Below, piece after piece: positions 7,374-8,140 of a stretch of DNA of 64,000 bases. A model generated the notes under the pieces. It saw only the letters and a list, made by a program, of their open reading frames with translations. It was not told where the DNA came from and made no database searches. Source of the stretch: a plasmid. Position 1 is the stretch's first letter, and every line of letters begins with the position of its first letter. A program made the translations under genes and the position numbers. The stretch lies in the sequence record CP019900.1, one strand, 5' to 3'.

Positions 7374-7599
7374 GCTCCTGACCTGTCTGTGCTCCGGACA
7401 ACTGCAGTTTCAGGAATTAATAAATCCTTATATATGGCAGTGTTAATTTTGTGACTCGGATCATAACATTCAGCCCGGTTATTGTGCTGTAAGTGTAGGC
7501 ATATATTGATATATCTCGATTCGCCCGTTGGATCAGCCCGTGATTTCCCTGCGGGCTTTTGTTCTGATACTCCCCCGTTCCTTCCTGTGATGGTTTTCT

Positions 7600-8140
7600 T
7601 TCCTGCTGTGTCCCTTTAAAACCTGAAAAGGCTTAAAAGCACACCCACACTGGACACCTTCGGCTCCCGGCCAGCTGCGCTGTCCAGTCGTCGAGCCACA
7701 CTCCGCTAACCGCGAAAAGACGCGGTAAGCTCCGCCGAACCCGCCAGGCGGTTTCGGGCCTGACGGCTAGTGTCTGATGTCTGAGGTCAGGGTCAACGGC
7801 AGCGCTTGCTGCGACCGTCCCGGCCGCGCCGCTTTCACCGTGCCGGCGAAGGACTGCCGGCACTCTGATGGCGCCACGCCGTTCCGTCGTGTCGGGTGTG
7901 TTCATTCTCATCCCTTCCCCTGGTGAGTCATCTCTCGTCCGTTCCCCGGCGAAGGGCTGGTCGTAGCACCGTCGTGTCGTCATCCGAAGGGTAAAATGAA
8001 CGCCGCCAAAACTTTTTGCCAGGGACCGCAAAAACTTTTGTCTGCGCCCTTCTCCTTCCGCCCCGCCGTTGCTCCTTTGCCCTTTGCCGCCAGGGAACTC
8101 ACCGAGAGATGGATTAACCACCAGACCAGAGGAAAAGCAG
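7600..8140 (+). promoter_or_regulatory. GC-rich, hairpin-rich non-coding block upstream of a five-gene operon (three ORFs of unknown function plus the methyltransferase- and KlcA-like genes); candidate single-strand promoter (Frpo-like) or ssi element
   Basis: no credible ORF on the + strand for about 750 bp in an otherwise gene-dense region; perfect hairpin GTGCCGGCgaaggactGCCGGCAC near 7838-7861; direct repeats CAAAAACTTTTG near 8008-8041. Confidence 0.3.

Follow-up and report, generated by a model that had tools for sequence, protein, structure and literature searches.

A diverged Frpo-family hairpin as a candidate single-strand DNA promoter in the leading region of a Klebsiella IncF-type plasmid

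The window, which is the whole 64,000-nt stretch of DNA analysed here (record CP019900.1), comes from a Klebsiella IncF-type plasmid and represents its leading region, with psiB, psiA, hok, klcA, an SLT gene, oriT and traM. The block under study lies at 7400-8140, and the neighbouring genes were named by Pfam. The setting of the block is as follows.

340-2340: ParB-like gene
2385-2816: PsiB
2813-3544: PsiA
4191-5270, minus strand: insertion sequence (IS) with an rve-type integrase
5342-5503: Hok
6401-7373: upstream three-gene cluster, closed by a terminator-like hairpin at 7535
7535-7567, plus strand: this terminator-like hairpin with its T-run, an 8-bp stem followed by TTTTGTTCTGA
8142-10133, plus strand: genes headed by the element described below, at 8142-8522, 8588-8935, possibly 9023-9253, and 9300-10133 (N6 DNA methylase-like)
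10758-11288, plus strand: antirestriction gene of the KlcA/ArdB type
11326-11805, minus strand: SLT transglycosylase
12234-12632: TraM

The oriT is located near 11.9-12.2 kb, with the SLT gene on one side and traM on the other, and all of the leading genes are on the plus strand and directed at oriT, as in F. The position of oriT between the SLT gene and traM makes the minus strand the transferred strand, which is therefore the template for the plus-strand genes. The place and orientation that the initial annotation had assigned to the block thus stand: it holds a minus-strand element in the leading region, ahead of genes that are transcribed toward oriT. The closest relative of the block is found in Klebsiella variicola pKp5-1 (CP008701.1), with 98.4% identity over the block. 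The IS at 4191-5270 is inserted between psiA and the hok locus and is a break in the leading region relative to pKp5-1. On the other side of oriT, an IS5-like transposase gene (12846-13814) directly follows traM, and it is followed by a traD that lacks its 5' part (13974-15536) and then by traI; an ORF at 40145-41113 has the same length as the IS5-like transposase gene. Most of the transfer genes seem to be deleted here (window 12846-15536), and for this reason the plasmid is probably mobilisable and not self-transmissible. An Rfam scan of 4500-12500 returned nothing within the block. A weak Rfam match to AS-pc01 (RF02875, the antisense RNA of plasmid pHK01) is found on the minus strand at 8936-9029, between the second and third genes of the 8142-10133 unit, with 52.7 bits versus a gathering score of 79 and E = 3e-7.

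The block is GC-rich, as had been noted, with a GC fraction of 0.62-0.64 over 7600-8050 versus about 0.50-0.53 in the flanks. It had also been described as free of ORFs, and its reading frames indeed do not behave as genes. A protein-coding block would use either the 172-aa minus-strand ORF at 7633-8151 or small plus-strand ORFs; long open frames do exist, and some database records annotate a 'hypothetical protein' under the match. However, the two long minus-strand ORFs of the block have no Pfam match, and among 19 homologous copies the frame that begins at a conserved minus-strand ATG (window 7906) ends at variable points, after 7-98 codons. Numerous indels of 1-2 nt distinguish the copies, and the upstream frame on the plus strand is kept in only 9 of them, so that a coding function can be given almost no weight.

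Both edges of the block had to be moved. In most related plasmids, the shared part of the block starts no earlier than query position 197 (window position 7596), and the conserved unit begins at about this point rather than at 7400. The stretch 7400-7595 is outside the unit, and so is the terminator-like hairpin that closes the upstream genes. On the right, the hairpin does not stop at 8140 but continues to 8174, so that it covers the Shine-Dalgarno site and the beginning of the gene, with the ATG at 8142 and about 11 codons. The minus strand of 7400-8140, the piece that had been proposed for a folding check of the transferred strand, folds with -157 kcal/mol (z = -6.5 versus shuffled sequence), and the full extent of the hairpin, 8174→7870, was found once the fold was extended beyond 8140. 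The parts of the element, together with the predicted promoter features, are listed below.

7596-7869, minus strand: distal array of small GC-rich hairpins, containing GTGCCGGC-N8-GCCGGCAC at 7840-7863
7870-8174, minus strand: long imperfect hairpin, the Frpo-family core (fold, class-1 profile match and covariation)
7896-7908, minus strand: 13-nt arm at the foot of the hairpin, pairing perfectly with 8139-8151, which contains the start codon
7960-7968, minus strand, 3' arm: extended -10-like motif TGcTACGAC, the putative promoter core
7983-7988, minus strand: weak -35-like hexamer TTCGGA (TTGGAT in some copies), proposed from sequence and alignment, 17 nt upstream of the -10-like hexamer
7992-8000, minus strand, 3' arm: unpaired 9-nt bulge TTCATTTTA with invariant A, T and T (fold and alignment)
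8001-8046, minus strand: A/T-rich apical stem CAAAAGTTTTTG / CAAAAAGTTTTG with an 8-nt loop
8083 (+/- 3 nt), plus strand: predicted transcription start with a 59-nt leader, taking the 3' arm as the non-template strand
8129-8198, plus strand: Shine-Dalgarno site GAGGA (8129-8133), ATG at 8142 and 19-codon leader MNTQNVNVKTATKESTERW, a conserved unit of which 8142-8174 is inside the hairpin
10555-10799, minus strand: second, shorter hairpin of the same family (match to the family profile A1, E = 2.9e-22)

The long hairpin on the minus strand has about 305 nt and folds with -85.8 kcal/mol (z = -8.1), versus -60.6 kcal/mol (z = -4.0) for its complement. It consists of a 5' arm (8174-8029), an apical loop (8028-8021) and a 3' arm (8020-7870). 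Because 8151-8139 is paired with 7908-7896 at the foot, the 5' arm contains the start codon at 8142 and about 11 codons together with the Shine-Dalgarno site. The apical stem corresponds to what had been reported as a direct repeat. The sequence CAAAAACTTTTG is present exactly once (8029-8040), and 8007-8018 reads CAAAACTTTTTG; together they form an imperfect inverted repeat at the tip of the long hairpin, and there is therefore no direct repeat. This apical stem is absent from the short variants of the family, including the copy in front of klcA. The bulge TTCATTTTA is present in 24 of 27 elements, is common to F Frpo and ColIb ssi1-3, and is likewise left mostly unpaired in the folds of class-1 elements.

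The distal array is moderately more stable on the minus strand, with -67.2 kcal/mol (z = -3.5) versus -57.4 kcal/mol (z = -2.2) on the plus strand. The perfect short hairpin that had been described, GTGCCGGC-N8-GCCGGCAC, occurs once in this array, at 7840-7863, with a chance expectation of none. The array is 93% identical to the DNA that lies distal of ssb-Frpo in pKp5-1 (locus L001, 4547-4774), and the module at 7652-7832 shares 70% identity with the DNA that lies distal of ssi2 in pESBL. F Frpo1/2 feature an equivalent distal hairpin with another stem sequence, followed by a GCGCGACCGGAACGGTCGC segment. The array thus recurs beside canonical Frpo/ssi elements in pKp5-1, pESBL and F with the same shape and a stem sequence that sometimes differs. 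A further array of small GC hairpins is seen at 10353-10498.

For a comparative test of the fold, 19 copies from Enterobacterales genomes of several genera (67-98% identity) were aligned with MAFFT (alignment A1). An exact 17-mer scan of genome contigs gave mostly chance matches and about 17 usable Enterobacterales loci. RNAalifold on the raw MAFFT alignment gave the foot stem only, and the window's own fold was mapped onto the alignment instead. With this fold, 87.3% of the cells in the 19-copy alignment are paired versus 44-48% when the partners are slid, and changes on both sides are found at 25 pairs versus 12.8 +/- 2.3 in shuffles, a number reached by 0 of 500 shuffles. The foot helix (helix 1) is paired in 99.6% of the cells of the 19 copies and has changed on both sides at three positions. 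At about 10 loci in several Enterobacterales genera the order psiB-psiA … element – gene – gene – methylase – element – klcA – SLT – oriT – traM is found, and the element is antisense to the genes at all of them. In PLSDB, the hairpin plus leader was found in 2,661 records, 1,228 of them at a coverage of at least 80%, and the carriers at this coverage are mostly Klebsiella, Enterobacter and Citrobacter.

The transferred strand folds better than its complement in all 19 copies, by 4.5-23 kcal/mol, and the validated Frpo/ssi elements behave alike. In the 19-copy alignment, G:T oppositions number 153 versus 71 A:C oppositions. Strand bias and G:T excess therefore argue against a structure that was selected in mRNA. 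A structure of this type would require an ordinary promoter upstream, from which a long folded 5' leader would be transcribed that hides the ribosome-binding site of 8142. The pairing and covariation of the 13-nt foot with the start-codon region would suit such a leader, as would a small upstream frame at 7996-8145 that has an ATGA overlap in 9 of the 19 copies. However, it is the plus strand that folds worse in every copy, the A:C oppositions, which in mRNA would correspond to G:U pairs, occur half as often as G:T, and the upstream frame is absent or broken in the other 10 copies. Additionally, no sigma-70-like site was found by a scan of the plus strand over 7365-8140, and thus none between the terminator (7535-7557) and 8140. 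A function in mRNA is accordingly judged very unlikely. An ordinary promoter as the alternative source of transcription is also disfavoured, because the block has no plus-strand sigma-70-like site and there is a terminator just upstream.

On sequence comparison, the block is a diverged relative of F Frpo, that is, a recognised kind of element whose sequence family has already been published as a candidate. Frpo is a long DNA hairpin that arises solely in the single strand that reaches the recipient at conjugation. Samuel et al. list Frpo* 5, 6 and 7 as low-certainty Frpo candidates on a Salmonella enterica contig (Nature 2024, Supplementary Table 2; PMC11541004), the low rating being due to -35/-10 elements that differ from those of Frpo (PMC11541004). 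The block is 86-87% identical to Frpo* 5/6 over 356-397 nt and 79% identical to Frpo* 7, in the same orientation; the BLAST E values of 9e-127 (Frpo* 5) and 4e-119 (Frpo* 6) are below the E < 1e-6 used by Samuel et al. The leading region of pKp5-1 (CP008701.1) is drawn with Frpo arrows in the same work (PMC11541004). A similarity search against F Frpo/ssi had been proposed as a check, and it revealed reciprocal full-length profile homology to the validated Frpo1 and Frpo2. A class-1 Frpo/ssi profile made from seven elements has a single match in the window, at 8181→7882 on the minus strand, which is nearly full length (E = 1e-15). The reverse profile, built from the 19 copies of the window's family, gives full-length matches to F Frpo1 (E = 1.4e-16) and to Frpo2 (E = 4e-14). 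Plain BLAST to canonical Frpo/ssi detects a 45-nt apex only (ColIb ssi1, 80% over 45 nt, E = 1e-4). The element is also equivalent to Frpo in its slot: in pIM057_KPC the three upstream genes, the terminator and the distal module are the same as here, the hairpin that comes next is a canonical Frpo of the F type, and behind it stands a gene with a similar leader.

The covariation and the G:T bias fit single-stranded DNA of the transferred strand and a minus-sense RNA equally and do not separate the two. The minus strand could accordingly encode a structured antisense RNA over the ribosome-binding site of 8142, a repressor in the manner of FinP or Sok, and a moderate sigma-70-like site, TTGACG-17-CATTCT, is present on the minus strand at 8167-8139. 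However, there is no terminator-like site on the minus strand beyond the hairpin, and F Frpo, a proven single-strand DNA promoter, has TTGACG in its non-coding base as well. The full-length homology and the slot equivalence to Frpo also speak against an antisense RNA, which is considered highly improbable.

The genes downstream had been taken as one five-gene operon that ends in klcA. They form two units, 8142-10133 and klcA, since a second homologous hairpin stands before klcA. This hairpin, 10799→10555, folds with -72.5 kcal/mol (z = -7.4), has its own TGCTAAAAG motif at 10615-10623 and overlaps the start of the klcA/ArdB-type gene at 10758. The foot and the start sequence of the klcA copy differ from those of the first copy and still match each other. 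The 625 bp that separate the methylase gene from klcA are therefore a further candidate for a single-strand promoter. Both hairpins contain small upstream frames on the plus strand (7996-8145 and 10630-10770) that start at the bulge ATG (MNAA...) and whose ends overlap a start codon of the main gene as ATGA. The idea that the bulge is the start of a translationally coupled upstream frame was dropped as not general; with the frame at 7996-8145 intact in only 9 of 19 copies, it is probably incidental.

The product of 8142-8522 has 126 aa and belongs to no known family, and a protein search with the downstream protein returned only the label 'hypothetical protein' or a doubtful 'ammonia monooxygenase'. 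The leader formed by its first 19 codons (MNTQNVNVKTATKESSERW, 8142-8198) is constant across the 19 copies and the remaining protein differs, with at least seven unrelated families found behind the MNTQNVNVKTATKESSERW leader (loci L011, L015, L026, L050, L066, L071, L073, L094, L098, L099, L101, L112 and L121). KlcA (10758) has a related N-terminal start, MRTMKVNTATRESDEQF, and the leader DNA aligns with, and is homologous to, the non-coding base of F Frpo. No mention of the 19-codon leader was found in the single-strand promoter literature cited here. A tentative idea, to which less than an even chance is given by some distance, is that the Frpo*-type unit may be a portable expression cassette, in which the hairpin encloses the ribosome-binding site, the start codon and the first codons, its foot co-evolves with the bases around the start codon, and the leader is fused to varied cargo. 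If true, early-expressed genes, probably with anti-defence functions, would be exchanged in frame from plasmid to plasmid through recombination within the repeated unit. The shared leader might itself also act, for example at the start of translation or on the fate of the protein.

Strand, hairpin, homology, prior listing as a candidate and slot position agree with one another and support the Frpo-type reading that the initial annotation had put forward. The block is thus likely to be a single-strand DNA promoter unit of the Frpo/ssi superfamily, with the unit 8142-10133 switched on at entry. In the proposed mechanism, the minus strand would enter the recipient and the segment 8174→7870 would snap back into the imperfect hairpin of about 305 nt, which would present a duplex promoter mimic to the host RNA polymerase. 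With the transferred strand as template, transcription would leave the hairpin and run into 8142-10133, so that three small genes without known function and the N6-methylase-like gene would be expressed early, before the complementary strand exists. Synthesis of that strand would then iron out the hairpin and turn the promoter off. Precedent for both the activity and its mapping is available: Frpo1/2 are needed for early expression in vivo (PMC9849209), and the start sites of six single-strand DNA promoters of pESBL have been mapped (PMC12672017). The hairpin might instead act on the incoming strand without a promoter role, as a priming signal or as a roadblock that delays duplex conversion, as with F ssp2. 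Frpo was originally recovered as a signal for single-strand initiation, and DNA synthesis is primed by its RNA (PMC7690428); in the case of ssp2, synthesis of the complementary strand stalls at the stem foot (bioRxiv 10.64898/2026.01.09.698686). The hairpin here is long and stable, and on the transferred strand the conserved array of small hairpins follows directly on its 3' side; both features would be compatible with such a role. However, in F these activities add to the promoter activity and do not replace it, no sequence similarity links the element to ssp2 or ssp3, and the Shine-Dalgarno site, the ATG and the leader accompany the hairpin as a single unit, an arrangement that speaks for gene expression. 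An action by priming or stalling alone is therefore regarded as unlikely.

For the single-strand promoter, it had been predicted that -35/-10-like elements would lie in an extended stable hairpin, and in class-1 elements the stem is expected to reconstitute -35 and -10 boxes, with mismatches near the -10. The hairpin is there, and with it an invariant extended -10-like motif, but a clear consensus pair is missing and the -35 is weak. A sigma-70 scan found no consensus -35/-10 pair with 16-18 nt spacing on either arm; this null result is uninformative, because the same scan finds none in the validated F Frpo1/2 or in pESBL ssi3. Each of 27 elements, drawn from both types, has a single TGCTA in the homologous position. 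In the window's fold of TGcTACGAC, TGCT is paired and the A at 7964 is unpaired, followed by a bubble of about 5 nt. Independent folds gave TGCT paired in 96-100% of the elements and the A in 11%, and of the six bases after the A of TGCTA all but the first are mostly unpaired. A TGCTA at this junction between duplex and single strand would look like an extended -10 at a fork junction. In the duplex form, the plus strand at 8070-8078 reads TGCTCCTTT and lacks an A there, which would account for activity confined to the single-stranded form. In the profile alignment, the hexamer TTCGGA stands opposite the TGGAC(A/T/G) that is conserved in class 1, and the -10-like hexamer is without the usual final T.

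The favoured placement, held at less than even confidence, would use the 3' arm as the non-template strand, with TGcTACGAC as the -10, a weak -35 and a start near 8083. By the same rule, a start near 10701 with a 57-nt leader is predicted for the klcA copy, and both predicted leaders (59 and 57 nt) are unstructured. The opposite placement, with the 5' arm as the non-template strand, is less likely. It draws on the alignment of GTGAGT-17-CAAAGG in the 5' arm with TTGAGA-17-CATCAC of F; however, the -35-like GTGAGT is missing from the klcA-type copies, and the hairpin of the resulting mRNA would itself bury the ribosome-binding site. The opposite placement had been favoured at first through a TTGAGA-17-CATACT of F, the second hexamer of which came from the old D90178 entry. 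The GenBank D90178 ssiD entry and the F reference genome (locus L004, 18880-18910) disagree in this stem (CATACT versus CATCAC), and the discrepancy alters the apparent quality of the best sigma-70-like match in Frpo.

Single-strand promoters determine the plasmid genes that are expressed in the first minutes of conjugative entry, among them genes for anti-restriction and for suppression of the SOS response. The subfamily described here is present in about 1,200 PLSDB plasmids (at least 80% coverage), and many of the genera involved carry clinically important resistance plasmids. The full-length homology to Frpo upgrades a published low-certainty candidate. To that listing are added firm homology to validated Frpo, evolutionary support for the fold of the transferred strand, corrected boundaries, a second copy before klcA and a testable, if provisional, promoter model. 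Precise targets for mutagenesis can now be named, which are TG 7967-7968, A 7964 and the foot at 7896-7908.

Among the known systems, the published candidates Frpo* 5/6/7 belong to the same sequence family and are different in nothing essential; their entries end at the start codon, and the continuation of the hairpin into the gene is not visible there. The elements ssi1-3 of ColIb-P9 / pESBL (IncI1, class 1) have a homologous apex and bulge, and the distal module here is 70% identical to that of ssi2, whereas the profile matches are only partial and limited to the apical part (E = 2.5e-6) and the basal stem is unrelated. Between F ssiE and the window there is no similarity. The promoters of class 2 (ssp2) and class 3 (ssp3), described for F and pESBL (Wen et al. 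2025; Fraikin et al. 2026 preprint), have the place of the element here and the role proposed for it; ssp2 heads a klcA/ardB-type gene and class 3 heads the M.EcoGIX methylase operon (PMC12672017). A search with these F and pESBL regions, upstream of klcA/ardA and of the methylase operon, gave no relevant match in the window. The search is a working test, because Frpo' 4 of Samuel et al., which is ssp2, matches those regions with 81-83% identity. The klcA-type gene is thus headed by a short Frpo*-type hairpin here and by ssp2 in F and pESBL.

The closest likeness among the validated elements is to F Frpo1 (ssiD) and Frpo2 (class 1, ssp1), which share the position in the leading region and the orientation on the transferred strand. 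Size and stability are also comparable, with 305 nt, -85.8 kcal/mol and z = -8.1 here and 319 nt, -93.9 kcal/mol and z = -9.0 for F ssiD/Frpo. The apex, the unpaired GTnCATnT bulge, the GCGGTTTTGACGTT basal motif and the distal small hairpins are common to both, whereas the mid-stem has diverged and the class-1 TGGAC(A/T/G) reads TTCGGA here. The gene start differs as well: it is about 55 nt outside the hairpin in F, whereas the hairpin here includes the start codon, about 11 codons and the Shine-Dalgarno site. Frpo1 and Frpo2 have been validated experimentally, and the subfamily described here is a candidate promoter beside them.
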